A stretch of 61,726 bases of DNA, counting the filler, from Nemertoderma westbladi (lineage: Eukaryota > Animalia > Xenacoelomorpha): the NCBI GenBank assembly GCA_032718475.1. It is 4 parts of 4 records of this genome, joined end to end, with 100 filler letters (N's around TTAATTAATTAA, not from the genome) between each part and the next. Parts side by side here need not be neighbours in the genome. Positions count along the whole stretch, not along the records: positions 19,727 to 39,114 come from JAUCBJ010001589.1; 3 more parts are not named here. One strand, given 5' to 3'. Made by a program: the position numbers and the translations under genes. The notes beneath the pieces were generated by a model. The model ran no database searches and was not told where the DNA came from. It saw nothing but the letters and a program-made list of their open reading frames with translations. Shown piece after piece: positions 16,652 to 40,232 of the stretch. Each line of letters starts with the position of its first letter. The stretch's first letter is position 1.

Positions 16652-18933
16652 TGTAAGGAGTTACATACGTAACTGTAACCACTGTAAGGTGTTACATACG
16701 TAACTGTAACTACTGTAAGGAGTTACATACGTAACTGTAACCACTGTAAGGAGTTACATACGTAACTGTAACCACTGTAAGGTGTTACATACGTAACTGT
16801 AACTACTGTAAGGAGTTATATACGTAACTGTAACCACTGTAAGGAGTTACATACGTAACTGTAACTACTGTAAGGAGTTACATACGTAACTGTAACCACT
16901 GTAAGGTGTTACATACGTAACTGTAACTACTGTAAGGAGTTATATACGTAACTGTAACCACTGTAAGGAGTTACATACGTAACTGTAACTACTGTAAGGA
17001 GTTACATACGTAACTGTAACCACTGTAAGGTGTTACATACGTAACTGTAACTACTGTAAGGAGTTACAAACGTAACTGTAACCACTTTAAGGAGTTACAT
17101 ACGCAACTGTAACCACTGTAAGGTGTTACATACGTAACTGTAACTACTGTAAGGAGTTTCATACGTAACTGTAACCACTGTAAGGTGTTACATACGTAAC
17201 TGTAACTACTGTAAGGAGTTTCATACGTAACTGTAACCACTGTAAGGTGTTACATACGTAACTGTAACTACTGTAAGGAGTTACATACGTAACTGTAACC
17301 ACTGTAAGGTGTTCCATACGTAACTGTAACCACTGTAAGGTGTTCCGTACGTAACTGTAACTACTGTAAGGAGTTACATACGTAACTGTAACCACTGTAA
17401 GGTGTTACATACGTAACTGTAACTACTGTAAGAAGTTACATACGTAACTGTAACCACTGTAAGAAGTTACATACGTAACTGTAACTACTGTAAGGTGTTA
17501 CATACGTAACTGTAACCACTGTAAGGAGTTACAAACGTAACTGTAACCACTTTAAGGAGTTACATACGCAACTGTAACCACTGTAAGGTGTTACATACGT
17601 AACTGTAACTACTGTAAGGTGTTACATACGTACCTGTAACCACTGTAAGGAGTTACATACGTAACTGTAACCACTGCAAGGAGTTACATACGTAACTGTA
17701 ACCACCCTAAGGAGTTACATACGTAACTGTAACCACTGTAAGGAGTTACATACGTAACTGTAACCACTGTAAGGTGTTACATACGTAACTGTAACCACTG
17801 TAAGGTGTTACGTTACATACGTAACTGTAACCACTGTAAGGAGTTACATACGTAACTGTAACCACTGTAAGGTGTTACATACGTAACTGTAACCACTGTA
17901 AGGTGTTACATACGTAACTGTAACCACTGTAAGATCTTACATACGTAACTGTAACCACTGTAAGGAGTTACATCCGTAACTGTAACCACTGTAAGGTGCT
18001 ACATACGTAACTGTAACCACTGTAAGGAGTTACATCCGTAACTGTAACCACTGTAAGGTGCTACATACGTAACTGTAACCACTGTAAGGTGTTACATACG
18101 TAACTGTAAGCACTGTAAGGTCTTACATACGTAACTGTAACCACTGTAAGGAGTTACATACGTAACTGTAACCACTGTAAGGAGTTACATACGTAACTGT
18201 AACCACTGTAAGGAGTTACATACGTAACTGTAACCACTGTAAGGAGTTACATACGTAACTGTAACCACTGTAAGGTGTTACATACGTAACTGTAACCACT
18301 GTAAGGAGTTACATACGTAACTGTAACCACTGTAAGGTGTTACATACGTAACTGTAACCACTGTAAGGTGTTACATACGTAACTGTAACCACTGTAAGGT
18401 GTTACATACGTAACTGTAAGCACTGTAAGGTCTTACATACGTAACTGTAACCACTGTAAGGAGTTACATACGTAACTGTAACCACTGTAAGGAGTTACAT
18501 ACGTAACTGTAACCACTGTAAGGAGTTACATACGTAACTGTAACCACTGTAAGGTGCTACATACGTAACTGTAACCACTGTAAGGAGTTACATCCGTAAC
18601 TGTAACCACTGTAAGGTGCTACATACGTAACTGTAACCACTGTAAGGTGTTACATACGTAACTGTAAGCACTGTAAGGTCTTACATACGTAACTGTAACC
18701 ACTGTGAGGAGTTACATACGTAACTGTAACCACTGTAAGGAGTTACATACGTAACTGTAACCACTGTAAGGAGTTACATACGTAACTGTAACCACTGTAA
18801 GGAGTTACATACGTAACTGTAACTACTGTAAGGTGCTACATACGTAACTGTAACCACTGTAAGGAGTTACATACGTAACTGTAACCACTGTAAGGAGTTA
18901 CATACGTAACTGTAACTACTGTAAGGTGTTACA
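16652..18933. repeat. 31-bp satellite, ~70+ copies, internally palindromic
   Basis: TGTAAGGAGTTACATACGTAACTGTAACCAC; AGTTAC-ATAC-GTAACT hairpin in each unit. Confidence 0.98.
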
Positions 18934-19726: not shown

Positions 19727-20607
19727 TCGTATAGAGCAGTAGTCACGAGTTTTTCAAAGCCACGAAAGAACGGCTTTGTAGTGTTTTATGTTTTATGCTT
19801 TTTAGCTCAACACTAGTAGGTTTAATTACAAGGACATATATCCTTTAACGGACTGACCTGGCTGCAATTACGCATCAAACAACCTGGCTTTAACTCTGTA
19901 AATATCAAAACAAACTGGCACGATTGATCTGTGAATACTGCATACTGCTATTTGTTGTCGGTTATTCATTATATTTGTTGATGAATTATTATATTGGAAT
20001 AACGAGAAATAAACCCGACACCCAATATTCTTGATATACCGAAGGTAAGAGAGAAAGGTTACCAATAACGATTGTGACTTATGTTAAAGTGGTTTGAAGT
20101 GAATCTAATGTTATTTGATAGACCCTACATGAGTCAGTCTGTGTTCCTTTTATATGTGACTAAAATCAGTAAAGATTGGCAGATTAGTGTGCAGTATTGT
20201 GCAGCATTGTGTGCGAGTGAGTCTGTTAAAGAAGCAATTCCTAAAGAATGCGCCATATATGTGAATTATAATTAAGCCATATCGTTGTGAGTAGTTTAAG
20301 TCATAACTCTGTTTATATAGATAAAGTGCCACGTCCTAAAGGAACTGTTAATATTCCCGAAGGTAAATTATATTGTCAGAGATTATATAATACTGTCAGT
20401 CGAATAATACATTAGGCTTACATAGCAATAAAATTAAACCGTCGAACCCAATCTCCCGGGAATATCCAGCGGGTGAATGGTCGCGCACGGATTGGTTTCG
20501 ACTAGTGTAGTGAATCAAATACTTGTCATAGGCTAAAAAGCGATTTAATATCTAGAAGACATCTTAATTTGGCGGGTTAAACTGCCAAAGGTCTGAAAGC
20601 GCGAACA
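19727..20607 (+). mobile_element. Partial LTR of the long-LTR family
   Basis: Highly similar to 58398-59205 and diverged from the reverse complement of 3527-4400; ends ...GAAAGCGCGAACA. Confidence 0.8.
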
Positions 20608-20783
20608 GCTGGGTCAGTGATTGGTTTCAGTTCGCCATGGGCTGGGTCAGTAATTGGTTTCAGTTCGCCATGGGCTGGGTCAGTAATTGGTTTCAGTAAT
20701 CGGTTTCAGTTCGCCATGGGCTGGGTCCGTAATTGGTTTCAGTTCGCCAAGGGCTGGGTCCGTAATTGGTTTCAGTTCGCCAT
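20608..20783. repeat. Short minisatellite (~33-bp unit)
   Basis: GGGCTGGGTCAGTAATTGGTTTCAGTTCGCCAT repeated ~5 times. Confidence 0.9.
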
Positions 20784-20999
20784 GTTGATCTCGGCGCATC
20801 CCATTGCATCTGTTGGTAGCGGGTAAAGAGGCTGAGCGCCCTGGAGCCAGACAATAATGACCAGACAGAATATGTACTTATATTATATTACAATTTCAGT
20901 ATATTGCAATATTATGTATGTACAGTAGGAATAATCCATCTAACTTTTATGTTTTTTTACTTATAGTAATTTCATGGTTTAATTAAATTAAGCAAGCAA

Positions 21000-21200
21000 A
21001 GTAAACAGTCTACCGAAGACGGAGGCTACCCGAGGGTAGGGATGGGCGCTACTCCTATCCCAAGATTTGCTCCCAGTAATTTAACTGGTACTCATTTTAT
21101 CGACCCCATAGTGGATGAAAGGCTGAGTGGACCCTGACGGGGCTGAACCTACAACCACTAGATTGCCGGCCTGGCGCTCAACCAACTGGGCTGCCCTGTC
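21000..21200 (-). mobile_element. tRNA-derived SINE with a conserved central domain (Nin/Deu-like)
   Basis: Minus strand has a tRNA-like head followed by CACTCAGCCTTTCATCC...GGTCGATAAAATGAGTACCAG. Confidence 0.7.
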
Positions 21201-22490
21201 TTTGATATTAAATTGAATTAAATGGATGTTATTTTAAAAGAATAATAAAATATAATCAATGTCATCATCAGTCGCGTTGTGAATTATGACCGATATATTT
21301 GTATTGAGACACAGTTTTCAAGACAGAACCGTTTAATGTATTGAATAATGGTAGTTTGAAATATTTTTTGACTGCAAACCATTATTACATAATTTGTTAT
21401 TTCCATTAATTTTGATATCCTTTCGATTCGAGTATATTTTATAAATTCTAATAAGTTTCTTTAGCCCATGAATTGAATTTGAGACCAACCTCAAGTCATT
21501 AGCATACAAAATTATCGCACGTGGGTCATTAATAACACAACCGATACAGCCTCAATACAACAACACAGGCTTTAGGTTCCACCTTGGTGTCACGTTTAAT
21601 TAACATATCTCGTAGGTCGTGGGTTCAATCCGAAGCCGCACATGGGCATGGGGGCCGTTTTTGCGATACGGTTTGGAAGATCAACCAAAACCGAATAAAC
21701 CGTAGAAAAATAACGGAAAATTTATGTTAACCAGTTTATAAAATAGCTCATAATGGTTAAACCAAATCAATGCCTTGGAGGAATCAATAAACACAATAAA
21801 ATAGTTTGCCAACTAGAATATCGGGGACAGGACTTATGACACTGGCAAGATTGTCTAAAAAATTAAATTTACTTTCAATGCCATTTTAAAGCTAATAATT
21901 TTAAGCGCTCTTTATTGCGGTAGAACCAACAACATTTAAAAACTTACCGGTATCTATTTATTGAAGTCTAATATTATATAGCCATATTATAACACAGATT
22001 ATATTATATTCACCCGATTTAAAAAGTACTTTTTATTTAAATGTTTCTTTGAACACAACACATAGAAATACATATGAAATAGCAATACAAAATAAAAGCC
22101 TCTTTATAGTTATGAAAATTGTTTAGATAGTGTGGGATAGGGAACTGTTACAAAAAATAAACTGACAGTGTAAGATAATAGGGGGGTAAGGGGGGGGGGG
22201 GGGGGGGGGGGGCTTTCGACGGAATCAAAATTCATCCTTCTCCAGGGGAAAATCCGAGGGGCTGATAATTTCCAAAAATAAAACTGTACCCTGTTTTAAT
22301 GACTTTAGTTTAATGTTTTGGTTAGAATAACATGCCAATGTAACCTGCTCCTTTTTCTAAATTTATAATTTAACATTGAAACGAGATTTACGGCCACCCC
22401 CCCCCCCCCCTCTCTTATCTTTTTGAGGTTAATAATAATAACGTTAATAATAATGTTAACGTACAGTTATATAATATAAGTTTAATATCA

Positions 22491-23822
22491 TCAATTCAAT
22501 TGCCCAACATTATTTATATGTTTTTTCTCCATATGGGCGTTTAAGTAATACCTTTTGGTAAACAACTTATTGCAATGAACACAGATGTATTTGATGCCCT
22601 GATGTACGAGTTCCCGATGTCTCTTGAGTCCCTGTCTGTCGGAGTAAACGCTGTCGCAGAGCGCGCACCCGTACTTTCGGCCTTTATGGATGGCCTCGAT
22701 GTGCAGCTTGAGACTCCAACTGGTCACGAAGGTTTTATCGCACTCGGTGCAACTGTGTTTCATATGATTATGAACGGCGTCGACGTGCCGCTTTAAACCC
22801 CGGATATCCGCGTACATTTTTTCGCAGGAATCGCAGCCATGTTTCGCTGACTTAGCGTGCGAGAACTTTAAATGTTTCTGAAGGCCTGAGGAATCGGTAT
22901 AAACTTTATCGCATTCCGTGCAATTATACTTAATACCCCGGTGAATCGCTTCGATGTGTTTAGTTACACCCAAATTATCGGAATAGAGTTTATCGCAATA
23001 AAGACAACTGTACTTCTTCCCTAAATGAACGGATTCTCGATGCCTCCGCAGGTATCTTTTATCTTTAAATACTTTATCGCATTGGTGGCAGTTATAAGTA
23101 ATACCTCGATGAACTGAGTCAATGTGTTTCTTTAGAATATCCCTTTTCGCGCACAACTTATTGCAGAGACTGCAGGTGTAATTAATACCTCTATGTATGA
23201 AATCAATATGGGTCTTTAGGTGACCTTTGGTTGCGTGTTGACTAGGGCAATGCGGACAATCATATTTAATTCCTTTATGGACGGAGTCGATATGTTTATC
23301 GAGGTTGTCTTTATTTGAACATTTTTTCTCGCAAAGGAAACACACATGTTTGTGACATTTGTGAGCGAATTCTATGTGTCTCTGCAATCCGGTTTCCGAT
23401 TCGTATTCTTTTCCGCACTCGAAACAAACGAACCCGAATTCCGATTTTACAGATTCTTCGAGATGTTCAGATTTTACTTCGGGAATATCAAAATTAAAAC
23501 CGGAAGAAATGTCCCCGCAGTTTAAATTATCATATTGGAAGTGAGTAGGATCGTTATTATATTCTCCTTGTGTCTCATAAGGATGAAGTGGTTCATTTTG
23601 AGTTTCCATACCGGTACCCGTACCCGTACCAGTAGGTTCTCCATTATGTAGTACAATTACAAACTTATCTCCCGCCAGAATTTGATTGTCGTCTGCGATT
23701 CCATACCGGTAATCGTTCTCAACCTTTACTTCTATATTTCTCACTGTTTTTTCTTTATCAGGAAAGATATTTTTCGCAGCGTTGTCAGAGTGAGTCATTA
23801 TACCGGTATTGTTCGTCGACAT
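22491..23822 (-). CDS. C2H2 zinc-finger protein, ~11 tandem fingers, uninterrupted ORF
   Basis: 443 aa; repeated CxxC...Hx4H fingers with H(K/R)GI(K/T)Y linkers. Confidence 0.92.
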   Translation of the reverse strand: MSTNNTGIMTHSDNAAKNIFPDKEKTVRNIEVKVENDYRYGIADDNQILAGDKFVIVLHNGEPTGTGTGTGMETQNEPLHPYETQGEYNNDPTHFQYDNLNCGDISSGFNFDIPEVKSEHLEESVKSEFGFVCFECGKEYESETGLQRHIEFAHKCHKHVCFLCEKKCSNKDNLDKHIDSVHKGIKYDCPHCPSQHATKGHLKTHIDFIHRGINYTCSLCNKLCAKRDILKKHIDSVHRGITYNCHQCDKVFKDKRYLRRHRESVHLGKKYSCLYCDKLYSDNLGVTKHIEAIHRGIKYNCTECDKVYTDSSGLQKHLKFSHAKSAKHGCDSCEKMYADIRGLKRHVDAVHNHMKHSCTECDKTFVTSWSLKLHIEAIHKGRKYGCALCDSVYSDRQGLKRHRELVHQGIKYICVHCNKLFTKRYYLNAHMEKKHINNVGQLN

Positions 23823-26171
23823 ACTGACATATTATAGATAATTACAGAATTAGTTAAAGAAGTATTGACTAGTATGTAGTGAGTGAGTACTGGAGTATGC
23901 CGTAATACATCAGATTCATTACCTTACTGCATTATATTTAATTTCTTACAGCCATGTTCTGTTAGTATGTGTTCTGATGTTGCTTCTACCGTCTGACCTT
24001 AGTAATTGCAATGTTTTGCAATGTAATTGCGACGTTTTAATCTATTTTACACAAAAAATTAAAATCAAATTTTGCTTTAAAATTAATATAGGCCAAGCAC
24101 CTAGCCTACAGGCCTACAGTACAGCAGTACCCTACTCAGCTACTACTGACGCAATATGTTTAGAATATAATATTTTAGTTTTTATTACTTTTTCTTTGTA
24201 CTTACAGATTTATGTTGGTTTTACTCATTGCTCACCCTACAGTGTAGGCCTGTACGTTACTATCGCCAGATCGCCGTTCAGCCGTTTTTAATCTAGGCAG
24301 CTAGGTGTACTGTCTGACTGTACAGTGTACACATAAACATTTATATCCATTTTAGATTATAAATAATACTGTAGCAATACTAGTTCAGTAGTTTTATTAA
24401 GCCTATATAAATTTTGTGAACGTGGTAAACATATCGTTGTGAATCTATGTTCTGATGTTGGTTTTCATTATTTCGTACTATGACTGTATGACGACTTCCT
24501 ATAACTTGTATTTTGTTAGTGCAGTATTTTGCCCCGTATTCCGTCCTCGTATTTTGATTTGATTTTGATTTTTATTTTTTTTATATTTTCTCTGTTCATA
24601 ATGACTGACCGTGTTTTACCATTTTATTTTTTTAGTTTGCAATATTTTTATTTAATTCCAATAGAGATACGCTCGTAGTGCAACATTGCCTGGGTTATCT
24701 TCTCCCTCCATACATATAATTGTTTAATTAAAGGTCTAATTCAATTTCATTTTGTGAATATGTATGTCATTAATACGGTGGCTGGTTTAGGCCAATTTAC
24801 TTTCATTTTTTTTAACGGCAAAAAAGTTTCAAACTAAAGTAGGAAATAAAAAAAGTTTCAAACTAAAGTAGGAAATAAAAAAGTTTCAAACTAAAGTAGG
24901 AAATAAAAAAAGTTTCAAACTAAAGTAGGAAATAAAAAAGTTTCAAACTAAAGTAGGAAATAAAAAAAGTTTCAAACTAAAGTAGGACATAAAAAAGTTA
25001 CAAACTAAAGTAGGACATAAAAAAGTTACAAACTAAAGTAGGAACCTAAAAAAAGTTTCAAACTAAAGTGTCTGCAATCTGCATGCTGCAGCCATAGCCT
25101 TCTGTAGGCCTACCGTAATGTGCATCATACTGTAATACAGTACTGCAGTACTGTAGACCTATGTGAGCCTAACTGTCTGATAGTCTGCGCCGAATGCATG
25201 TTGTAATGCTGCGCCCAACGTGTTCGGGGTTCGGAGTACATGTAAAACTTTTCAATAGGGACCACCGGTAGGCTATTGATTATGACTTACAGGACTTAGG
25301 TAGGACGCCAGACTCCAGACTCAGGTACGGTACAGAGCTGCAGGACTCGCCTATATGTAGCCTATATCAGTTAGGCCTATATCAGTATATGGTAGATGAG
25401 AGAGAACCAACCCTCCGGGGGTAAACGCTATTCCTACACGTACTGACAGACTGACGTACTCATACGCCTACAACGCATACACCTACCCTACCTACACTAC
25501 ACAGTTAGGAACTTTCAGTCCCATTGCGGCTGGATGTCCAGCCCCAATGAGGCTGGACGAAAATCAAACATCCCATTGAAATTCAATACAAAATGTTATT
25601 ATAAATGTCGATAAAAAATACAAAACGCCGGCATTATGAAAGTTACATGAGTAGATAGAGCTCAGTTGGTAGTATCGTTTGTATGCGAAAAAAAATAATT
25701 TTTATGTACTGTTTTATTTTAATTACGACTTTAATTAAATTCCAGCCCCTAATGGGCTGGACAACAAGTTTTTACCAAAGCATTAAAACCTTGGCTCCTT
25801 TGGCTGTGATTGACAGACTAATTGCCCTGGGCTGTCCTGCTAACTGGTGCCTCAGAGAGCTCGGATGGGCATGGGATGGCTAGGATGGAGCATAGCAGCA
25901 TAGCCCAGCCAGCCAGCCAGCCAGCCTGCCCAGTAGCCTGTATGCTGGTATGGTATGTAAATGTCTGGAGAGGGTTGAGGGGGGAGTGCCCAGAGCTATT
26001 GTATATTGTATTGTATAGGATAAGGTATCTTTCTTTCACTGATATTAATCTTACCTTATCTCTGATAGTTACAGCTGCAGATCCCTTTATGGCCTAGTTA
26101 GTACAATACTACCTATGGCGACGCCACTGGCTTCTATAGACCAACATTATATTAAATTAGCTTAGCCTATT

Positions 26172-26443
26172 CGTTGCAGTTGGTGGTTGGGCTGCTTGAC
26201 TGAGGAGGCTAACTAGTGATTATAGACCAGATTGGATTAGATTCTATTACACATTAATAATGCGTTGCAGTTGGTGGTTGGGCTGCGTGACTGAGGAGGC
26301 TAACTAGTGATTATAGACCAGATTGGATTAGATTCTATTACACATTAATAATGCGTTGCAGTTGGTGGTTGGGCTGCGTGACTGAGGAGGCTAACTAGTG
26401 ACTATAGACCAGATTGGATTAGATTCTATTACACATTAATAAT
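26172..26443. repeat. 91-bp tandem repeat, 3 copies
   Basis: CGTTGCAGTTGGTGGTTGGGCTGC... at 26172, 26263 and 26354. Confidence 0.95.
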
Positions 26444-27314
26444 ACAGTTGGGTATTCTCAGCGAGATTTGGTTTCCTCATGAAACCAAATCTGCTTTCAC
26501 TCTTACTCTAAATTGAAACCAAATCTGGTTTCCTTTGAGATCTCAGGACATCAAAGGATGCCCGACTTTGCTACTGGGATATGAGTGACATGTATCTGAG
26601 AGTCAATTGCCTAACAACAAGCACTGCAGCACTGGCTGGAAATTGGTGCTCTTCTATTTCATGTATTTAGCCCTGAGGCCATGTTCTCCTGTAGGAATGT
26701 ACCTACTGTCGTCTGACAGTAGGTACCTAAACTAAGGCTTTGCTTTATATACACCAGAGTCTTGGGTGCTAGCGGCTAGCACAGCATTGCCCAAGGCTAA
26801 TAATATACCATAGCCAAGGCAGGTTATTAACCTCCAACCCGCAGTAGTCCACAGTCCTTACAGCCTTAATCAGTTACTATTATATCCCTATAGGGATAGT
26901 TAGTTTTATTGTGTGGCCAAACCTGTTGCTGCCTGGCTGCTGTGTGTTGGTGTGGAAGTAATTAATGGTGGTCAGAGTAAGGAGAGACAAGAGAGTGGGT
27001 TTAACAGTTTAATGTGGAATATGGCTATTGCTATTAATCTCTATGCTTATATCAGTACAGGCTGCAGCCCAATATTGCCAGATATTGGTGATTGGTATTG
27101 GGTTTTAGTTAAGTTCCCAGGTACCTGGCTCTGGCAGCCTGGGCAAACGACCAACAGGACATATGTTCCGCGGGACTGTATGTTCCCGGACATTATGTTC
27201 CCAAAAATTACCAAAAATGTGGGAACATAGGCCTATATTCTGTCCGAGTGTCCGACAGTAATAATGCAAACATAATGTCCGGAAACATATAATAAATAGG
27301 TAATCATAATATTA

Positions 27315-28483
27315 GGGTGTAAACGTTAAGCAGACAGTGGTGCAGACAGTGGTGCAGACACCTGGTGCGGACAGTGGTGCAGACACCTGGTGCGGACAGT
27401 GGTGCAGACACCTGGTGCAGACAGTGGTGCGGACGGTGGTGCAGACACCTGGTGCTCGTACGGACAGTGGTGCAGGCACTGGTGCAGACACTGGTGCAGA
27501 CAGTGGTACAGACAGGGGTGCTGGTCACCTCGCCGCACTGCCACTTCGCCGCAGACAATGTGCGGCGAGGTGTCTCACTGTGAATGCCATTTCGCCGCAA
27601 GTCAATATTAATAATTTATTTCTATATTTACAGGGAAGCCTATACTATGCCTAGTTATGGCATTGGACATTATTATAAGAAGAAATAAAATAGTGCGGTA
27701 AGGTTTGTTGTTCTATTATAATTACTGTATTATTATAGATATACAGTGAGAATATTTGAGTTACGTATTAGATTATAGTAAAACAGTCCTAATCGTAAGT
27801 TTGTCAAAAATGTTAATCAGTTGTTTAAAACAAGTGTGACGTTATGAACGTTAAAAAATTTAGCATTGTAATGTATGCCTGCAGTATATGCCCGCAGTGC
27901 GGCGAGGTGACCAGCACCCCGCAGACAGTGGTGCAGACAGTGGTGCAGACACCTGGTGCGGACAGTGGTGCAGACAGTGGTGCAGGCAGACACTGGTGCA
28001 GACAGTGTTGCAGACAGTGGTGCAGACACCTAGTGCGGACAGTGGTGCAGGCAGACACTGGTGCAGAAGTGTTGCAGACAGCGGTGCAGACACTGGTGCA
28101 GACACTGATTAATTTGTTTACCTTTACTGGAGCCACTGCTTATTACTGTAGGCCTATAATAAAACGAGCTAATTAAGTTGTTGTCTCATACTGGGGATAT
28201 ACATTCACTAACTACAGTAAGTTCTCAGGAATTCTTAGCCCGCGAGTATTCTTGGCCCTTGGGTATTCTTAGCCCGCAAAACAATAACGTTTATTGTTTT
28301 GGTTCCCCCAATCTGTCAATACTCCTCTGAAACCTGCTCCTTTACTAACCTTCTCGCCCCTTTACTGTCTGCACCAGTGTCTGAACCACTGTCTGCACAA
28401 CTGTCTGCACCAGTGTTTGCACCACTGTCTGCACCACTGTCTGCATCACTGTCTGCACCAGTGTCTGCTTAACGTTTACACCC
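27315..28483. mobile_element. MULE/Foldback-like element with 12-bp subterminal arrays
   Basis: TIRs GGGTGTAAACGTTAAGCAGACA...; 9-bp TSD ATAATATTA at 27306-27314 and 28484-28492; (GTGGTGCAGACA)n arrays in inverted orientation. Confidence 0.85.
27515..27920. mobile_element. MITE inserted into the 12-bp array
   Basis: TIRs GGGGTGCTGGTCACCTCGCCGCACTGC / GCAGTGCGGCGAGGTGACCAGCACCCC; imperfect 7-bp TSD ACAGACA/GCAGACA. Confidence 0.8.
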
Positions 28484-30551
28484 ATAATATTACAAATATT
28501 TTGTTGTACAGTAGCTGAATGATAATTAAAATAACAGTAATGGCTTGATACATTATTCGAAATAATACTTGACATTTAAACATATCTGCCTATGGGGGGG
28601 TGGGGTGCGAATGCCCTACCCCTTCGTGCTCTTAGATTTTAATTGTTGTATCTATGGATCCAAGATCTGAATGCAAGAAGATAGAATAAACTAAGCTCGG
28701 AGCCCATTATACTGGTACCGTGCTGTTATCTCTCTCCCCCCCCCCCCCCCCCACCCCCGGCGCATGTAGTGATTCCTGTGATTTCTGTGTTACCTCATCA
28801 CTTATCCAGACAATATTGGGCATATTGTGTTTTAATATCCAACAGAATGCATTGATAGCACCATTGCTTAGAAGGTTGTTCTGTAATATAGACTGTAAGT
28901 CTTGGTAGGTCGGTTGGGAGACGCCATACTGTAGTAAAAGCTGTCAGTTTGTGAGAGGTATATATTTTGTACAATCATGGATATGGATTTGCCTGCACTG
29001 TAAAAACATTCAAGACACAAAAGACAATAAACAGTTATACACAGTGATGGTGTGGGAGATATTGTTGACCAGACAGGTCGCGACTTACGTATACAGGTTA
29101 CAGCTGGGGGAGATGCCCCCCCCCCCCCCCCCCACCCTTGGATGCGCCGCTCGCAAATCGACAATAACTTAGACAATAACTGTAACTTCTGTATCCTGCT
29201 CCTTTCCCTAAATTAAGAATTTAACAATGAGGCGGTATATTAATTCGCCAAGGCAGTCCAGTTTGCGTCCAGTTTCCCCCTTGTCTCAATTTTATATATG
29301 AAGATTTCTTATTTTTTTTAATTTATCTTTATTAATTGATTTATAGCAGTATAGCGCTTAGTTCTGTCTTATAACTTCTACATATACTAATTAGTTTATT
29401 GTTTTGGTTAGATTCAGCCCTTCTGTAACCTGTATTTACTTTTAGCGTTTCGGGCACTAATTTTTCAATATTCATTTTACATTAACCCTATATGAGATGG
29501 CTGAAACGACACCCCACAGCCCCAATTAGCAATTTGCGAACTGTCGAACTGTATACTGTTTAGTGCAGTTAGTGAATGTTGAGTATGTACTTACACCAAG
29601 CAGCCAAGTACCATGTATGAATTCAGCAACATGCTATCTTTATTATTGATTATTACAGCAGTACAGGAGCCAGCAAGCGAGTTCTATTAATTTTACCAAC
29701 CGTAGTGCATAGTAGATATAGGCGGAATTGGATTATCTACATATCCTCCTATAGTACAGTAGTATAACTATCATCAGTCTATCACTACTCCCACTCAGGT
29801 CGTGCCTAGAGTAGATGTCAATCAATTTTACACTCTAATGGGTTCCAGCCAAAGGATGAAATGGGGCTGGATATATTTTAAGGCGGCACCCTTTGTAGTT
29901 ATAGCTTGAGACAGTCCAGCCCATCCAAAGGGAGATGGGGCTGGATTGCTAAGCAAACCGACCATTTTCTGCGGCTTTGTCCAGCCCCAATTCAGCTGTC
30001 ATGGCCAGCCCCATTGGGACTGAAAGTTCCTAACTGCTACATGTAGGCCTACCGGTAAGCCTGAACATCTGATTGATGATTCTCAATAAAATTGGGTTTT
30101 CTACAATACCGTTCTGCCGTTAGGCCTATTCTGCTATTCCTTTACCCCCTAACCAGCTAACCCTGCCTACCCTACACCCTAACAAAAATAATAAAGCAAC
30201 ACTGTAGGCTAGGCTACTTGTAGGCGGTAGCGGTAGCCCCTGTAGTCAGGTAGTGCGTAGTGGTAGACCTGGTAGCGGTAGGCCAGTGGTAGCATTAGCA
30301 TACCGGTATGTCAGTATGTGTAACTGCCCTAATCATCTGATCATGCGGTTATAATCCTGTAATCTAATAGGCCTATACCGGTATTTTGTGGAATTTGGGA
30401 CTGTTACGAAGTTGCTAAGTTAGGCTTAACTTTATCGGTAAATATCGGCCTGTAAACTGATATAATCAATCATGTACTGATGTAGGCCTATATATATAAT
30501 ATATATATCAATATCAGTATCAGTATATGGAGGATATGCAGATATCGAGAG

Positions 30552-31010
30552 ATGGAATCAAATAGTGACAATCCGGTCGATGATCAAGATGATACCGGTA
30601 ATAGGGTTCGGCGAAATCTCCTCAATGATATAAGGAGGGATACTTACTTAAGAATAGATTCAATATATCGTAGATTTTCTGGAGAAGGTGATAGGCCTAG
30701 TCATAATCATACCGATTTGGGCCTCTCTGGAAGTTCTGACTACAATACTGGTAATGTTATTAATAATTGTGACCTAAGTTCCACTGCCTCAGTTGCCATA
30801 AATAAAACTACTGAGCCTGACACTGCTGTTCGTGGTGCACCTAGTTCTATCGATTCATTGTGCTCCAAACCAAAGCCAATTTCCGGCTTACGAAGAAAAC
30901 CATTTAATGCGAAAGTGGGACGACCACCAGCTACTACTAAGTATCTCTGTTCTTTGGTCATAACGACAATCACGAGAACACTGCCGATACACTACCGATG
31001 TCTGTATTAG
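30552..31010 (+). CDS. Low-complexity ORF overlapping the HECT ORF; probably its N-terminal part, joined by a frameshift or splicing
   Basis: 152 aa starting with ATG; overlaps the HECT frame at 30941-31010. Confidence 0.45.
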   Translation: MESNSDNPVDDQDDTGNRVRRNLLNDIRRDTYLRIDSIYRRFSGEGDRPSHNHTDLGLSGSSDYNTGNVINNCDLSSTASVAINKTTEPDTAVRGAPSSIDSLCSKPKPISGLRRKPFNAKVGRPPATTKYLCSLVITTITRTLPIHYRCLY

Positions 31011-32227
31011 ATAATGATGTTGATGTAGATCACATCAAAGAGAATGGTGATACTACAGGTGCCGATTCTGTTATTGCTGTCGAAGTTGAAAGCAATCTAT
31101 CATCTTCATTGACCAGTTTATTCAAAGCTTTAAAGGAAATGGATCCAAGCCACTCAGTTCTTGAAGTTCCACGAAGTCGTATCGTGGAAAGTGTGTATGA
31201 TATTATGGATACCGAAGAGATTCGTCCCACCTTGATGGTTAAGTTTTTGGACGAAGAAGCTGTGGACACAGGAGGGCCTTTACGAGAATTGTTATCATTA
31301 TTTTTTCTCCATCAGCCTCCATCCTTGTTTCGTGGATCTTATCCAGAGTATGTTTTTCGACATAACTTGTCTGACATCCAAAGATTTTATCATCTTGGGA
31401 AATTAGTTGGGATTTCGCTTCTAAATGGCGCCCCTGGGCCACATTGTTTCAGTGATGTATTTGCCCGTGTGATCCTGGAACTACCGTTTAGTATAAATAT
31501 TAGTGATATACCTAAAGATGATGAACTAATTGAAAGAGTCAGTACTATAAAAGAGGCTATCACCGAAGGTGATTTGATCAATGCAGTAAATAGTCTTACT
31601 GAGCGGTTCGACATGGGAGTTTTACAAGCAAACATAACCGTGGACGAGAAAGACAAAGTTGTAGATCTGCTACTGAAGCATATCTTACTTAGTACTGTCT
31701 CTGAAGAAATTAATAAGTTCCGTGAAGGGTTGAATATTTTTGGAGTTTATGATATTATGAGAAATTTTCCAGAAGATAGCCTGAAATGTCTAACACATCA
31801 GACCGTCACAGCTGAAGAAGTCAAACAGTGCTTTCGGGTTAAACACGAAGCACATAAGAATACGCAGGAGTGGCACAAAGAAAATGAGATAGCATTTAAG
31901 TTTAACATGTTTCTAAAACAAGTCGAACGCAATGAATTGGCATCTGATGTTATTGAGGATCCCCATAGTGACGTAGAAGCCATTCATAGACATATATTAA
32001 CATTGAATGATGTATTGCAGTTTGGTAGTGGGTCTCGCTACCCCAATTTTATTGGGGAATTAGGTTTCCATAGAACCAATGATTGCAAAAGGAGACTTAT
32101 TGGGGACACCTGTGCTAATGTCATAAAATTTCCAATAAATGATCGTTATCTGGTCGGTTCTTCCCGCAGCTTTGCAAAGAATGTGACAGAAGACATTCTC
32201 AACTGTCACGGATTTGGGATTTACTAA
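30998..32227 (+). CDS. HECT-domain E3 ubiquitin ligase (G2E3-like), transposon-borne
   Basis: VKFLDEEAVDTGGPLRE, GKLVGISLLNGAPGPHCFS, LQFGSGS, catalytic-type GDTCAN, C-terminal -4 Phe (GFGIY). Confidence 0.88.
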   Translation: MSVLDNDVDVDHIKENGDTTGADSVIAVEVESNLSSSLTSLFKALKEMDPSHSVLEVPRSRIVESVYDIMDTEEIRPTLMVKFLDEEAVDTGGPLRELLSLFFLHQPPSLFRGSYPEYVFRHNLSDIQRFYHLGKLVGISLLNGAPGPHCFSDVFARVILELPFSINISDIPKDDELIERVSTIKEAITEGDLINAVNSLTERFDMGVLQANITVDEKDKVVDLLLKHILLSTVSEEINKFREGLNIFGVYDIMRNFPEDSLKCLTHQTVTAEEVKQCFRVKHEAHKNTQEWHKENEIAFKFNMFLKQVERNELASDVIEDPHSDVEAIHRHILTLNDVLQFGSGSRYPNFIGELGFHRTNDCKRRLIGDTCANVIKFPINDRYLVGSSRSFAKNVTEDILNCHGFGIY

Positions 32228-32785
32228 ATTGCTATCTGAATTTTGCCCATTTGTCAATATGTTGAGTTTTGTTGCGTTATTTTGTGTTTTTGAATCATTT
32301 TATATTTGAAACAATGTAACAATATTGATTTGTTTGTATTGCAATTACCGAATTTTATAGAAAATGGTAAGGGAGTAAGCAAAGAGGTTACCCCCCCCCC
32401 CCCCCCCCCCCTCCCCCACATAAAACTGAAATCAACTCGAATTTTTATTTTATAAAATAAATCGACGCCATTCTGACAAAAACGGACAAGTTCAAAATTT
32501 GTCATTCTTTTCGTTTTAAAAAAATCAAATTTGTTATGGGTCAAGAGCCCCCCCACCCCCCATCTGTAAATCTGATTTATTTTGTTGAGCACCGGTGGGA
32601 GCCCTGTTTGCACGTAATTTGAGCAAATAAAATGCCTCGAAAATAGTGAAAAATGTAGACTCTTTTTTTCCCCAAGTAATAAATAATTATTAAGGCTTTT
32701 TCTCGAACACGTTTCTATTACTCTCCAAATCGTTTTAATAAACTTAACAAATACAGCATTTGTAGGCCTACGTGGTAATGGTAAT

Positions 32786-34033
32786 TTAAATTGCCCCAAT
32801 ACCGGCAATTAAATCACTTTCAATTGTATTTAATAAATATTTTAAGGTCTGACTACAATCGAACAAATTATTACAGTGAAGCGGTTCTATTATGTTTCGA
32901 TTACATTTGAGATAATGTAGGCAAATATTATACACACTGAGTCGGCAAGGAGTATCGTGATCATCATTCCCTAGGTTATTGAAAGATTCCACCAAGGTAA
33001 GAGTTTCATCGTCAATAGCATGCAAATAATTAGGATTATCTAAAAAGAGAATGTCCGGCTTTCCTGGTGGGGCAATTAAACCACTTTTTCGTAATCGATG
33101 CGTGTTCCATTTTTCAACAATAAAATCTAGAGTTCTCTGCAGTAAATCAATATAAACGAAACGAATAATTTCAATGTGTAACATATTAGAAGTGTCAATG
33201 ACCCCAGAAATATCCAACTCGTGAAAATGAATCAACCAAGCTTCCATACCTAGAATGGGAAATTTACTCCACCACGCTTCTATTCGTTGATTCCTGGAAC
33301 TTTTTCCATATAGAAACACTGATCCTCTCGTTGCATTGTTATCTGTATGAATTAAACGGAATAACCTTTGGAATAATTCAACATTGACATTTTCTGAACC
33401 TCTATCACAACGAACAATGTGAGGCACTCCACCTAGTCGCATCAGACACTTAATGAATTCACTCCCAATTACAAATGGATCGTTATTACTTCGATGGCAA
33501 AATAACCACATCATTTTACGGCTATAGCCATCGATGGCTCCATGTATTGCTAAGCCGTAAGGTTTTAACTTGTCCCACCCATCTATATGTAATAAATAGT
33601 TTGGCCCTTTTGATAGGTAGGTACGCCGAACAATCTTTCTTCCAAGTCTTTTTCTGACAGCTCCAGGCTCCAGCAAGAAGATAATCTTTGCAACTAAATC
33701 CCTAGGAGCATACAATTTGTACTTTAACATCAATGTCTTCTGCATTTGCCGATAACCAATACCCGACGCAATAGAACTTAAATTCCTTTCTTTGTCAATA
33801 TGGTCGATGAGCTTGTCCAAATCAATTGTATTAAATCGTTTCACAAATCCCATACCGTTCAAATCCCTGCGAATAACTCGTGTTGATATAGAAATGCCTT
33901 TGGAACCAAGAACTGTTTGAGTTTCATTATGCTCAAACCCTTTAAAATAACAATCGACAATTGTAAAGATATACAATCGCGCTAATGCAGATATACTCAT
34001 TGGTAGTAATAGCGATACAACACCAACAGTCAA
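32786..34033 (-). CDS. IS3EU-type DDE transposase (integrase core) with an N-terminal HTH-like region; likely ATG at ~34000
   Basis: GISISTRVIRRDL; GYRQMQ; GPNYLLHIDGWDKLKPYGLAIHGAIDGYSRK; VRCDRGSEN; NQRIEAWW; WNTHRLR. Confidence 0.9.
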   Translation of the reverse strand: MTVGVVSLLLPMSISALARLYIFTIVDCYFKGFEHNETQTVLGSKGISISTRVIRRDLNGMGFVKRFNTIDLDKLIDHIDKERNLSSIASGIGYRQMQKTLMLKYKLYAPRDLVAKIIFLLEPGAVRKRLGRKIVRRTYLSKGPNYLLHIDGWDKLKPYGLAIHGAIDGYSRKMMWLFCHRSNNDPFVIGSEFIKCLMRLGGVPHIVRCDRGSENVNVELFQRLFRLIHTDNNATRGSVFLYGKSSRNQRIEAWWSKFPILGMEAWLIHFHELDISGVIDTSNMLHIEIIRFVYIDLLQRTLDFIVEKWNTHRLRKSGLIAPPGKPDILFLDNPNYLHAIDDETLTLVESFNNLGNDDHDTPCRLSVYNICLHYLKCNRNIIEPLHCNNLFDCSQTLKYLLNTIESDLIAGIGAI

Positions 34034-34899
34034 TACAACAACAATTACAATGTTTATTTATGCTACAAAGCTAAGTTAATGCTAATAGGAAACAGCAACG
34101 CATTGATGGTACCTGGTCAAGGACGCCTTGTACCTATGATACACTGTAGAAGACATACTAATAATATTGGTTAGAAAGAACCTGCGAGGGGACAGTCTGC
34201 TGAATGAAGTACCAGTATTAATGTTGAAATTTGATATGAAATGCAGCAACATGCAGACACTTTAGTTTGAAACTTTTTTTTTCCTACTTTAGTTTGAAAC
34301 TTTTTTTATTTCCTACTTTAGTTTGAAACTTTTTTATTTCCTACTTTAGTTTGAAACTTTTTTTATTTCCTACTTTAGTTTGAAACTTTTTTATTTCCTA
34401 CTTTAGTTTGAAACTTTTTTTAGTTTCTACTTTAGTTTGAAACTTTTTTATTTCCTACTTTAGTTTGAAACTTTTTTATTTCCTACTTTAGTTTGAAACT
34501 TTTTTTATTTCCTACTTTAGTTTGAAACTTTTTTGCCGTTAAAAAAAATGAAAGTAAATTGGCCTAAACCAGCCACCGTACATTAAGATTAATTTTAAAT
34601 AATTAATTATTTTATTATTCGGTGCAATTATTTGGAGTGCAATTACATTACATTACATTACATTACAGTAGTGGGTGCCTTATACTGTTATACAAGACAT
34701 TTATTTCTACACCCGTACATTATTGATTTGCTTACCTTGATATCTGACTGTTGCATATTAAAACTGTATTCTGGTTTTGAAGGCTACAGCCCTACAGCCT
34801 ACAGCCTACGGTGCAACTGTGAACTGGATGGTTATACATTACTGCATTATACAACAATACCTACCGTACCGGTACTGCTGCAATGCCACCAAAGAACAA

Positions 34900-37800
34900 G
34901 CAACCACAGACGCGACTAAGCATGGCTGGGGCGGGGGCGGTACCTGAGAGACAACCACCTCAGCACCAAGACCTAGCCTCGGCGGCAAAATAGATATGTC
35001 GAAACTACACAACTGCGATATCTGCAGTGCTCTGTTCGCGAATAAGAGCGACTATGACCTCCACTCATCATCTTGCCACAACGACTCGGTAAATGTCAAC
35101 TCCATGGACATTTGTCCACACTGTGACAAGAAAGTCGCAGGTAAGAAGTAAGAACTGCCTTGGATGCGAAATCTGTGGACATTGGATCCATGGATCGTGC
35201 CTGAAACTATCGAATACTGAGGTATACGGTGGCTGAATTGTGCCACTTAAAGTACTTTTTGGTCGACCAATAAGTCGACTTTTTGGTCGACCAAAAAGTA
35301 GTTTTTGGTCGACCAAAAAGTACTTTTTGGTCGACCAAAAAGTCGACTTTTTGGTCGACCAAAAAGTCGCTTCAAAAAAAAAATAAAAAAAAAGTATTAA
35401 GTGGCACAATTCAGCCACCGTAGAGGTATCCACCTTAGCCAAATGCGTAAACTGTAAAATCCTGTGCAATAAGTGTGAGGGAAGAGGTAGATTGGTAGTC
35501 CAGTCCTACGATTCACCGGGAACCCCGGCCACATCGCTTTCTGACAAAATTGAAATGTTGAGTGACAGTTTAACGCTTAGGCTGTCTACTCTATCAACGG
35601 AAATTTTGGAACTCAGAACTGAGCTTGATGGGGACGAAGATGTACACGTATCCTCGCAATGGAATGTGCAACGCGGAAAAGGAAAGCCCAGGCATTATTC
35701 CGATCCCAGTACACCAATTTCCAGAGCTGTGGATAAGTCCATAAAAGATGTTTTCCAAAAAGAACAGCTAAAGAAAGAGATCATTATTTCACGACTGAAG
35801 GAAGATAACGAGGTGTCTGTTAAAGATTCGGTGCTTCAGCTCTGTGAGTTGGCCGGGGTTGACAAGTCTTCGGTGGTCGAAGTGTCCCGACTGGGACGTC
35901 TTGGGAACCATGACCGTCTCGTAAAAGTCTCGTTCAACAGCGAACAGGGGGCCCGCACCTTTCATAAGAATGTGACTGCAAATGTATCATCATCAGACTT
36001 ATGTAAAAAGATCCGTGTTCGCCCGAGTCTATCAGCAGAACAGCGCTCGCGTATCAAAGATAGAAATAAAGAGGTTTATGACCTTAATAAAGCTGCAAAA
36101 TCTGAAGATGATCATTCTGAAAGCTACAGCCTAAGGTCCGACGGTTCAGTGTGGAAATTCGTTAAACACTTTGATGGTAAATGGAAACGCGATAAAACGT
36201 GGACCCATGTACCAGTCTCGGACCCTACCAACAATCCATCGGAGGCCTCACCGCCCTCGGAAAACCAATAGGGGGAGAGAATCGCAAAAAAACACCAATC
36301 CTAAACTGCTGCTGCTTAAACGCCCGTTCGCTGAAAAATAAACTGTCAGATCTAGGAGTATTTCTCAAGGAGACTAGTTACGACATCATCGCGATTACAG
36401 AAACATGGATGAATGAGACTATACCCGATGCAATGATCACATCTAGCACAAACTTTAATATGTTTCGTAATGACCGGAAAACTAGGGATGGTGGCGGAGT
36501 CATAATTTTAGTTCGCGATCAATTTCGTTGTGTACGGGTAAACCTACCCAACACCTATAATGATGCCGAAGTGGTCGCCATCGATCTACTTGGAAAAGCG
36601 CCGTCCAGATTCGTGTGCGCCTACCGACCCCCATCGCGTTTACTGATTCCAGATAACAGCAGCTTACTATGCGATGCACTGTCTTTACTATCGGATGTTA
36701 ACTACCCATGCATTATCACTGGCGATTTCAATCTTCCTTTGTTCAACTGGAAGGAAAGTATCTACCCAAATACCGAACTTTATGAACGCGTCGCAGCGCT
36801 GCTGTTAGAATCAAGTTTAACCCAGTTACAACATGAGCCTACCCGTGGCTCGCGTAATCTAGATTTGGTTTTCACTAGCGATGAACTATTTGTCGCAAAC
36901 GTGCGCACATTCGAACCGTTTTCCATCAGTGACCACGCTGGAGTTTCGTTCAACATTCTGGCCCCAGCCCACAATCAGAGTCATGACAAACCGGTTGGCT
37001 ACTTCGACTTCAATAAGGGTGAAGCCGCCTCTAAAGCGGCCTACCGGGCAACCTGCGAGAAAGAAACCAAAATATTGAATTCTGGTGACAGAAATCACAT
37101 ATTTAAGTACCTAAACTCGAAATGCAAAAATAAATCCGGTGTTGGTCCATTGAATTACAAGGGCGACACGATTGTAGACGATAAAATTAAAGCCAAAATT
37201 CTAAGTGAAGTTCTCTCCGAAAACTTCACTGAAGATAATAACTCGGTTCCAATATTTACACGTAAAGTTGGTAACAATGTTAATTTGTCTAGTGTTGGTT
37301 TCAGCCCAGTTAATGTGTTAGTTATGCTAAATAAGCTCGCGTCTAAAAAGAGTAGGACCCCTGATGGATTGCCAGCAATTTTATTTGTTAAACTAGCGTG
37401 TTGTATAGCAGCCCCATTATCAGCAATCTTTCGAGTATCATTCGAAACGCACGCATTACCATCTGTCTGGCTGACGGCCAACATAATACCAACGTTCAAA
37501 AAAGGCGATCCGTCAGATCCTTATAACTATCAGCCTATATCCCTTATCTGTATTGCTTGTAAACTCATGGAAATGCGCATTAAACAGGTTTTAATAGATT
37601 ATTTATTTTCTCATAAATTAATAAGTAGGGCACAACACGGTTTTTTACATCGTAAATCCACCTGTACTCAAATGCTAGAATGTGTTACTGATTGGTTCAA
37701 TTTAATTGATAAACGAAAGAACCTGGACATTATATGTATATATAGACTTTGCAAAAGCCTTTGATTCGGTAGTTCACTCTAAATTACTATCAAAGCTCAC

Positions 37801-38850
37801 TAGCTACGGTGTATGCGGAGATCTGTTTCTATGGATACGTGCATTTCTATGTAATAGAACCCAAAATGTACTTGTAGGTACCGAATCATCGGACTACTGT
37901 GTAGTTACATCGGGAACTATTCAAGGCAGTGTCTTGGGGCCAGTATTGTTTCTTTTATTTATTAATGATTTACCTGATGCATTGTTACCTGTTTGTAATA
38001 AACTATTTGCTGATGACCTTAAGCTTTATGCACCGGAGGAAGATTGTGATTCTCTAGCCTCAGCCCTTCAAAACTTGGAAGACTGGACTAGAAAATGGCA
38101 ACTAACAGTAGCGGCGCACAAATGCTCGGTTGTTTACGTAGGTGGAAATAATAATAAATTTGTTTATAATTTAAATGGTGCAGTGCTTAAATCAGATACA
38201 TACTGTAAGGATCTAGGTTTAATCGTGTGTACTGACCTCAAATTTGATAAATACTGTAGGGAACAAGTTGCAAAAGCGTACAAAATACTGAACTGGATAT
38301 TTCGTAGTGTACTGACAGCTAATACTAAAGCCCTGCTAACAGCAAACAAGACTCTGGTAAGACCGTTGCTGGAATATTGCACACCCATATGGTCCCCTTT
38401 CACAAAAAAAAGTATTGACCTTGTTGAGGAAGTACAACGGTACTTTACCAGACGATTGTACGCTCACTGCAAACTACCGTATGCCGTATGTCAGTTACCT
38501 CAATCGCATACAGTATCTATCTGTGCAACCATTAGAGGTGCGTAGAATTATTTTCGACCTCAAAATGTTGTATCGTATAAAGCATGGTTTAGTAGATATA
38601 GATTTCAATAAGATGTTCACAAGTGCCCCAAGAGCTGGTCTACGTGGTCATAATCATAAACTGTATGTTCCCCAATGTAGACTTCAAATCTATAAGCATT
38701 CATTTTCTCACCGTGTTGTGCCCGTATGGAACTCATTACCAGCACAAGCTGTTGATGCCAAAAGTATAAATATTTTCTCCGTGCAATTATTAAAAACGGA
38801 CTTACTTACCCACGCAAAATTCACTCGTTGATTCCAGTTTTTTTTTTCTT
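34900..38850 (+). mobile_element. CR1-group LINE, near full length, degenerate
   Basis: ORF1 from ATG ~34996 has a Zn finger plus PHD (CPHCDK..CEICGHWIHGSC..CNKC) and continues as 35492-36271. ORF2 has APE (NARSL, ITETW, GDFN, LDLVF, SDH) and RT (DFAKAFD, QGSVLGP, FADDLK), and ends LRGHNHKL..WNSLP. It has frameshifts and an apparent internal deletion near 37020. Confidence 0.92.
35225..35422. mobile_element. 198-bp IS3EU-type MITE
   Basis: TIRs TACGGTGGCTGAATTGTGCCACTTAA; 6-bp TSD GAGGTA at 35219-35224 and 35423-35428; internal TTTTTGGTCGACCAAAAA palindromes. Confidence 0.93.
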
Positions 38851-39114
38851 TACTTTATTTTATTTTTCATTTCATTTTCGATCATCACCATTTTTTATAT
38901 TAATCACTATGTATACAATTATTCACACCCATAAGCGCCCTGAGCCTGGGTGGTTCTCTCCCACGACCACTTGTTTTAGCTACCGACAACTACAGTACAT
39001 TACTTTTTACATGTCAGTGTTTTATTTTTATTCGTTTTGCTGTTTACCTTATGTACAAGTTACTTAACTACTGTGATGTTGTGTTTGTTTGACCGATTGT
39101 TTTATTCGTGTATT

Positions 39115-39214: not shown

Positions 39215-40232
39215 GGTTGGCTGGCGCTATTATTTTTTATTTTTTTATTTTAAAAAATCCTGAAATGGGTGCGAGAAAGGTCCTGTATGAAAAAAACGGG
39301 CGAAGTTAGATGCACGGTTTTTTTCCTTTGAAAGAGGAATAAATTTGAGGAAAGGTCCAGAAGTTTCAAGGTCATACCTCTAACCTGTTAGGTATGCCAG
39401 CGGCTTTTATAATGGTCTGGGCGGATTCCACCCCCCCCCCCCCCCCCGCAGGGTAGATAGAGTTAAGCTTTGTAGCCATCGATGACTGTTTGTGATCCCG
39501 GACTTCTTTAGGTGTTTTGGTCAAGGCGCCGTAAGGAAAAGCTAATAGACGCACCCAAGAGAGGTGATTGTTTCTCCTGGGCCTCTTTCAATAGTGTCAC
39601 TAGGGCAACAGCACCTACAATTATTGCCCCTTTGGGGATTTTGGCAATTTTACGCGATTCGATTGCTTCAGCTGGGAGAAGTACTCTGGAAGATAATTGA
39701 TGAGGGCAGCTGTATCTTTGGAGAGTGTCAGGTTGGGCTTGGGCCCTTTCTTTGCAGCTATCCAAACATGTTCCACAGAACCAATCAACCAGGCCGACAC
39801 AAGAGAGATGGTGACGGCTGACGGGTATTACACTGAGCACATGTTCCCATGAGTTTTCGCTGATTGATTTCATTACAGGTGGCACGTGCCTTGCTGCTGA
39901 TTGGTCGGAGTACAGGTTGGCCAACCAGTTACGTTTCGAACCTATTACTGTATTATATAGGCCTACATAAGGGCTGGTGGTAAGAGCTGAGTAGTTCATT
40001 GACAGTAAACGTATCAGCATGTGCTGATGTGACAAACCAAACGTGCACAACTGGGCAAACATTCACGCGATTATTCACACTCCCAGGACCCTGTCAGCCT
40101 GTGTCTTTTAGTTTTATATTTATTTATATAATATCTGAATATAGGCCTACATAATGTGAATGTGTACCCCGTTCCCGTAGCGGTACCGGTACCGCGTACA
40201 GTAGGCCTACAGATTCAGCGGCAGCTCGGCCA

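Follow-up and report, generated by a model that had tools for sequence, protein, structure and literature searches.

Whether a cut-and-paste DNA transposon can carry a ubiquitin ligase gene of its own, and what such a gene could do for it, is the question raised by a locus of Nemertoderma westbladi (assembly GCA_032718475.1). The window, i.e. the whole stretch of DNA that was analysed, has a length of 61,726 nucleotides and consists of four record parts joined end to end, which may not be neighbours in the genome; its positions 19,727-39,114 come from JAUCBJ010001589.1. An IS3EU/GingerRoot DNA transposon spans positions 24774-34580 and holds two convergent genes, one encoding a transposase and the other a protein with a HECT domain. 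Our analysis demonstrated that the pairing of ligase and transposase is real and recurrent in a known superfamily, and that this copy is a damaged member of it. As to the role of the ligase, we lean, by a modest degree and with the help of modelled structures, towards an IS3EU transposon with HECT as its standing second gene, the product of which would likely be an active ligase that docks on the transposase and clears the transposition complex.

Structure of the element and its transposase

Both tips of the element consist of the sequence TACGGTGGCTG, located at 24774 on the plus strand and at 34580 on the minus strand. When at most one mismatch was allowed, this motif had five matches in the whole window against 0.49 expected. 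The left terminal inverted repeat (TIR; 24774-25069, plus strand) starts with a TACGG tip and comprises 46 bp followed by 8.7 copies of a 28/29-bp repeat, and the right TIR (34259-34580, minus strand) contains 9.8 copies of a 28/29-bp repeat; these subterminal repeats make up most of the TIR. The alignment of 24774-25069 with 34286-34580 showed 96% identity over 298 columns, which corresponds to about 296 bp. The 6-bp target-site duplication CATTAA was found at 24768-24773 on the left and at 34581-34586 on the right. Both duplications are present in the sequence, and the left one was also seen at an empty-site joint: contigs in three of the four sequencing runs link 24767 to 34581 with six letters shared. 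Since the depth of the flank is high in X1 and X2, the empty-site contigs may represent other copies of a repeat and not alleles. The tips, the TIRs of about 300 bp and the CATTAA duplication had already been placed here by an inspection of the sequence without database searches (the sequence-only reading), and all of them stand. A C2H2 zinc-finger array gene (22491-23831; Pfam E value 3e-34) adjoins the left side of the element. Contig depth in X1 and X2 was higher over the element than over this gene; since it gives no copy number, it was not used.

The element is interrupted at 25502-30036 by a nested non-coding insert that is unrelated to it. The insert is flanked by a 5-bp duplication, CTACA, and has inverted ends of approximately 60 bp with the sequence CAGTTAGG; insert-free contigs over this region were detected in three of the four runs. 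Repeats of very high depth are present within it, namely inverted 12-bp arrays at 27316-28492 and another near 29190-29430. It had been proposed that removal of the insert leaves a two-gene element of about 5.3 kb. The two genes are there, but the size has to be corrected, as the intact form is about 6.0 kb when 718 bases missing from the ligase gene (see below) are counted.

The transposase gene (32786-34000, minus strand, from an ATG at 34000 to a stop at 32786) is an uninterrupted open frame of 404 amino acids (aa) that matched Pfam rva_4 with an E value of 4e-33 and contains the DDE motifs HIDG, CDRGSE and NQRIE. HIDG is located at residue 138, inside the range of 100-300 residues from the start that applies to the first Asp of IS3EU transposases, and the Pfam scan of the transposase gave no match to Integrase_H2C2, the N-terminal HHCC domain. 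The core motifs (HIDGxDKLKPYG, GxEN and NQRIE) agree by eye with the Repbase IS3EU rows in the available part of the supplement of PMC10045372. According to the accessible text of the same paper (Kojima and Bao 2023), IS3EU elements are characterised by TA..TA ends and 6-bp duplications. With TA..TA termini bearing TIRs, a 6-bp duplication and a DDE core that lacks HHCC, the element belongs to IS3EU/GingerRoot, and the uninterrupted transposase and superfamily membership claimed earlier were both confirmed. The X4 contigs gave no close cover of the transposase, and this point was not used. Among viral contigs, no relative of the transposase or of the HECT protein was found.

The ligase gene and its deletion in this copy

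The HECT open reading frame (ORF; 30941-32227, plus strand, in-frame ATG at 30998) matched Pfam HECT above the cut-off with an E value of 2.4e-8. A Cys at the catalytic position, within DTC at 32111-32113, and a Phe at position -4 are both present. A profile of 22 element HECTs matched HUWE1 at 6e-23 with this Cys aligned on the catalytic Cys of PTAHTC, and the catalytic-position Cys was the sole invariant column among the 22 rows. The structural model obtained from the 22-row alignment had a pLDDT (predicted local distance difference test) of 87, and its top Foldseek matches were all HECT ligases, SMURF2 among them with an E value of 2.6e-13. The Pfam match above the cut-off and the model both indicate the C-terminal bilobed HECT fold. 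HECT ligases employ a two-step thioester mechanism, as described in the available part of PMC6457168.

The catalytic-position Cys and the -4 Phe agreed with the sequence-only reading; the intactness of the gene did not, and the deletion that disrupts the frame had been missed. In this copy, a deletion of 718 bases at 30942/30943 breaks the ligase gene. At this point (30942-30943) the X2 and X3 contigs contain 718 extra letters, and the X1 and X4 contigs also continue with unlike letters. The 5' part of the gene (30552-31010, plus strand, ATG at 30552) is out of frame past 30942/30943 and overlaps the HECT ORF out of frame, while with the 718 letters added both pieces join in a single frame, 798 codons long in the absence of an intron. 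Two other origins of the 718 letters were considered. A removed intron was ruled out, since the pieces are out of phase without these letters, and an inserted element is unlikely, as the joint has no shared letters. The copy as it stands does not encode a full-length HECT product, and ATG 30998 alone could give a HECT-only protein. The 5' ORF matched no Pfam family and no longer homologue of it turned up; the search for longer proteins with the HECT profile resulted in one protein. Since relatives hold a ubiquitin-like domain where the deletion of the window's copy lies, the 718-base deletion probably removed this domain. In the Atlas, the structural neighbours of the relatives' domain include Rad60-SLD and YukD clusters, which fall below the bar for naming it.

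Recurrence of the transposase-HECT pair

We employed the transposase alignment in a metagenome scan, in which 528 of the 600 stretches scanned were confirmed and the best 80 loci were kept. From these loci 99 ORFs were sent to Pfam; the selection was by length, with a more lenient limit where an ORF lay downstream on the minus strand. HECT (E value at most 0.01) was detected in 27 of the 80 related loci, in 20 of these above the curated cut-off. Most loci are short: HECT was present in 22 of the 31 loci with at least 2 kb downstream and in 19 of the 23 with at least 2.5 kb. A HECT profile, built from the positives themselves, was also run over all 3398 ORFs; it matched 35 ORFs, each of which lies downstream on the opposite strand, and brought in L019 as a further locus. 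The HECT loci were distributed over 18 of the 51 transposase clusters formed at 70% identity.

Both element ends were on the contig in four of the 80 loci (L047, L075, L078 and L029). L047 and L075 are complete, with TIRs, duplication and both genes, so that HECT lies inside the TIRs. L078 has both genes and both ends with unmatched flanks; its HECT is the closest to that of the window among the kept loci (41%), and its first nine terminal bases are the same as those of the window's element. The Cys was retained in 26 of the 28 aligned element HECTs, and the two exceptions form one family. We compared HECT genes in 13 cases by the ratio of nonsynonymous to synonymous changes (dN/dS), of which two were near-identical, eight saturated or nearly so, and three informative and unsaturated; the latter gave 0.20, 0.16 and 0.06. 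The transposases of the two locus pairs concerned gave 0.15 and 0.09. The HECT gene in relatives is under purifying selection. Variants of the contigs relative to the window, 10 in the ligase and 9 in the transposase, were too few for a selection test. The sequence-only reading had named HECT in a single copy, syntenic HECT orthologues without TIRs in relatives, and neutral dN/dS together with a lack of ligase activity as observations that would speak against it, and the results on recurrence, TIRs and dN/dS were in its favour. The proposal that the element encodes a HECT ligase of its own stands, with the qualification that the gene of this copy is disrupted by a deletion.

These results bear on the view that the ligase gene is a passenger, that is, a captured host HECT gene without a role for the element. 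Such capture has a precedent, since clubmoss GingerRoot elements capture gene fragments (PMC6839031, in the part available); the broken gene of this copy and the discordance of the HECT and transposase trees (see below) would suit it as well. However, a passenger does not account for the fixed position and orientation in 27 loci, for selection on HECT that resembles that on the transposase, for the retention of the Cys or for the second HECT-bearing family in the same window. Recurrence, selection and the share of roomy loci with HECT largely refute the passenger view, and we regard it as very improbable.

Histories of the HECT domain and the ligase front end

A comparison of the transposase and HECT phylogenies had been suggested as a check of the pairing. 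In 18 elements the two trees disagree, while the front end of the ligase follows the transposase. L018 and L022 share 77% in the transposase and 30% in HECT; the corresponding values for L017 and L031 are 64% and 18%. In a further comparison, L017 and L031 had 66% in the transposase, 24% in HECT and 49% in the front end. All six approximately unbiased (AU) tests rejected the forced arrangements, three with transposase pairs on the HECT tree and three with HECT groups on the transposase tree (p from 4e-5 down; LG+G4; constrained searches may be suboptimal). In the trees used, the window's transposase is a long branch and L075 is partial. Chimeric metagenome repeat contigs are conceivable; on the ligase side, L017/L031 and L018/L022 showed no DNA similarity beyond one 27-base patch.

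Two types of front end were distinguished. Type A, with a short helix, a basic stretch and a ubiquitin-like domain, is represented by L047, L078, L079 and P0003. Type B, which has a SAM-like start (by eye), a ubiquitin-like part and UBX, is represented by L005, L007, L010, L017, L022, L031, L040, L056 and L075, with UBX above the cut-off in L007 and L017. Over 10 rows, the transposase tree shows a single change of front-end type and the HECT tree two; in a set of five type B loci, the pair with the closest transposases (L017/L031) also has the closest front ends. From a small number of events, these data suggest that each targeting exon has remained with its transposase, whereas HECT exons have been exchanged between lineages.

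Predicted docking and proposed role of the ligase

A complex model of residues 55-215 of the L078 ligase with the transposase of the same element had a score of 0.65, and the best of three controls scored 0.00. The predicted contacts agreed in at least 78%, and the partner pLDDT was at least 74. The mark for the complex score is attained by 51 of 78 solved pairs, compared with 2 of 108 mismatched ones; for eukaryotes the corresponding figures are 39 of 65 and 2 of 126. The best predicted contacts connect ligase residues 61-71, a short motif common to type A front ends, with transposase residues 373-389 and 406-409; the contacted transposase helix differs in sequence between type A and type B elements. 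In L078 the ligase front end is thus predicted to bind the C-terminal helices of the transposase, and on the basis of this model we read the protein as a transposase-tethered ligase. Two functions had been offered for the ligase, control of transposase turnover and degradation of host silencing factors. A transposase-linked role agrees with the L078 model, while no support was found for the degradation of host silencers.

In the mechanism that we propose, the HECT protein would likely be an active ubiquitin ligase. Through its front end it would dock on the C-terminal helices of the transposase and, once docked, would ubiquitinate the transposase or its DNA-bound neighbours, which are the putative substrates. 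The ubiquitin mark would then cause the finished transposition complex to be cleared after strand transfer. In one subtype the UBX-like domain may recruit the p97 unfoldase; UBX domains bind p97, and ClpX clears MuA. For its movement, the copy in the window presumably relied, or still relies, on ligase from sister copies with an intact gene. The intact relatives L047, L075 and L078 are better test objects than this damaged copy.

A number of observations weigh against this account or some part of it. L029 (296-3180) is a complete 2.9-kb IS3EU element with a 6-bp duplication, a transposase and no HECT. HECT was also missing from 4 of the 23 loci with at least 2.5 kb downstream, and L021, L055 and L060 (interrupted by a long interspersed nuclear element, LINE) have room for the gene and showed none. 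In L051 (2956-4352) and L074 (2749-3071) a Ser/Thr kinase gene convergent to the transposase occupies the usual HECT slot, so the ligase is not universal; the two kinases share approximately 58% identity in the part that could be matched, the transposases of the two loci share 52%, and the element ends are not on these contigs. HECT and transposase distances show a weak correlation (Spearman 0.30, p 0.048), and the association of front end and transposase depends on one tree split. No UBX was seen in the clade of the window's element. The binding model was made for the relative L078 and not for the window's copy, the 5' ORF of which showed no similarity to the L078 front end and matched the docking motif at chance level, with 993 of 2000 shuffles scoring as well. 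A likeness of this ORF to the motif noted by eye was dropped for the same reason.

The docking predicted for L078 would also suit a brake, in which the ligase degrades free transposase, limits copy number or host damage and is dispensable for the steps of transposition. L029, which has no ligase gene and still shows a clean duplication, fits such dispensability. However, the purifying selection on HECT would be better explained by a benefit to the carrier copy, while a pure brake should be readily lost, and we find a brake improbable.

Another role to be weighed is anti-silencing, in which the ligase would ubiquitinate a protein of host defence or of chromatin, and any binding to the transposase would serve only to bring the ligase to copies of the element. 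Fungal IS3EU elements carry TET/JBP dioxygenases, for which an escape from methylation silencing has been proposed (PMC12730594, in the part available). Exchange of the catalytic exon and its replacement by a kinase gene suit a conflict with the host, and the binding model is compatible with anti-silencing if the transposase is the recruiter. On the other hand, no host-substrate-binding domain was identified in the front ends, the Pfam matches there being UBX, a zinc ribbon and a weak PB1 only; dN/dS of HECT is low and not elevated; and the front end tracks the transposase. We consider anti-silencing possible, though unlikely, and retain the docked, complex-clearing ligase as the preferred account.

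Genes annotated as G2E3-like

Ten homologues of the window's HECT were found; the one with a name comes from a coral and is annotated 'G2 M phase-specific E3 ubiquitin ligase'. The 90% cluster of this coral protein has 32 members, and three of these are near-identical 679-aa NCBI proteins on different contigs. The available part of Marin 2010 (PMC2837046) reports no G2E3 outside chordates and an origin after the chordate/echinoderm split; the coral 'G2E3' labels therefore do not denote orthologues. Among the Atlas models, those nearest to the HECT of the coral relative were a Neuralized-HECT cluster (1621) and true G2E3 (1551), while NEDD4-type (915), HERC4 (870) and E6AP (737) ranked lower. 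A chordate 'G2E3-like' cluster of the Atlas resembles type B: UBX occurs in 38% of its members, and it is listed without a PHD family. PHD/RING, the N-terminal fingers of G2E3, was not detected in the Pfam scan of P0003 or of the scanned element ORFs, the gene of the window's copy being without its 718 missing bases; G2E3 itself is listed among PHD-based ligases in the available part of PMC13015453. The chordate protein is thus similar in ranking among the nearest structural neighbours of the coral relative's HECT and different in having PHD/RING together with HECT, whereas the element front ends have a ubiquitin-like domain, to which SAM-like and UBX parts may be added.

These data support the interpretation of invertebrate 'G2E3-like' labels as mis-annotation of element genes and give indirect support to the earlier suggestion that many invertebrate 'G2E3-like' genes may be transposon cargo. 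If this is true, transposon genes account for many of the multi-copy 'G2E3-like' annotations and of the apparent HECT expansions in marine animals, and the late-appearing chordate G2E3 gains a possible origin. The broadest version would combine a two-component IS3EU element, a docking and complex-dismantling ligase that is a p97 adaptor in one subtype, and a catalytic exon that is swapped or replaced by a kinase, with most invertebrate and fish 'G2E3-like' genes being elements and the HECT of vertebrate G2E3 domesticated from one. As a whole we regard this version as rather doubtful.

Other features of the window

The arm of a second IS3EU-type family is present at 47928-50146 (minus strand), with a TACCGTGGCTG terminus, 25-bp subterminal repeats and an inward HECT ORF at 47928-49022. 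Its HECT is 47% identical to the first one, retains DTC and is its sister in the tree (98/95). Within 47928-50146 no transposase was detected, and no partner end was found. A short 5' ORF (ATG near 49218) and the HECT ORF overlap in different frames, which may reflect a similar internal deletion in this arm. A non-autonomous IS3EU-type element of 198 bp at 35225-35422 has the 11-bp termini of the element at 24774-34580 and is flanked by a 6-bp duplication of its own, GAGGTA; its empty site was observed in matching contigs of all four runs. The insertion lies within the first ORF of a LINE (35068-38545) that has endonuclease and reverse transcriptase matches.

The remaining features include a glycosyl transferase family 90 gene in two ORFs (40155-42099), a gag-pol resembling that of long terminal repeat retrotransposons, in pieces at 4745-8936 (zinc knuckle, RNase H and integrase), and a satellite at 16652-18933 with 73.5 copies of a 31-bp unit and 93% matches. 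Inverted-repeat elements were found at 52156-53109 (167-bp arms, 87%) and at 55376-55761 (a 386-bp imperfect palindrome).

Comparison with known systems

Accessory enzymes are known from other DNA transposons, such as the OTU or Ulp1 proteases of Ginger1 and Zisupton. These proteases, and ClpX acting on MuA, resemble the system described here in a transposon-linked editing or reading of ubiquitin-family marks, or in the clearing of a transposase. They differ in that they remove marks or are encoded by the host, whereas here the element would write ubiquitin. If the proposed mechanism holds, the second gene of animal IS3EU elements gains a function. It would touch two open questions, the removal of eukaryotic transposases and integrases from DNA once strand transfer has taken place and the ways in which transposons deal with the protein control of their hosts, and an element with its own ubiquitin ligase and a predicted docking site would make the question approachable with two small genes.

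The IS3EU/GingerRoot elements described previously (PMC10045372, PMC6839031, in the parts available) have TA..TA termini, a 6-bp duplication, core motifs and the lack of HHCC in common with the element analysed here; the difference is the HECT gene, the word 'HECT' being absent from the portions of text searched. It is also absent from the main text of PMC6839031 (Cerbin et al. 2019) and of bioRxiv 2021.09.26.461848, and the main text of PMC12730594 contains neither 'HECT' nor 'ubiquitin'. No report of an IS3EU-HECT pairing was found in the literature searched, which mostly comprised papers available without subscription; Repbase may note the domain, and the label IS3EU-1_CGi_2p in the accessible part of a supplement points to a further protein listed in Repbase for some IS3EU families. 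The fungal IS3EU elements (Kojima 2025, PMC12730594, as far as its available part describes them) share with ours the TAYGG..CCRTA termini, the 6-bp duplication and a second enzyme gene opposite the transposase. In the fungal elements this second gene encodes an alpha-kinase or a TET/JBP enzyme, whereas here it encodes a HECT ligase.

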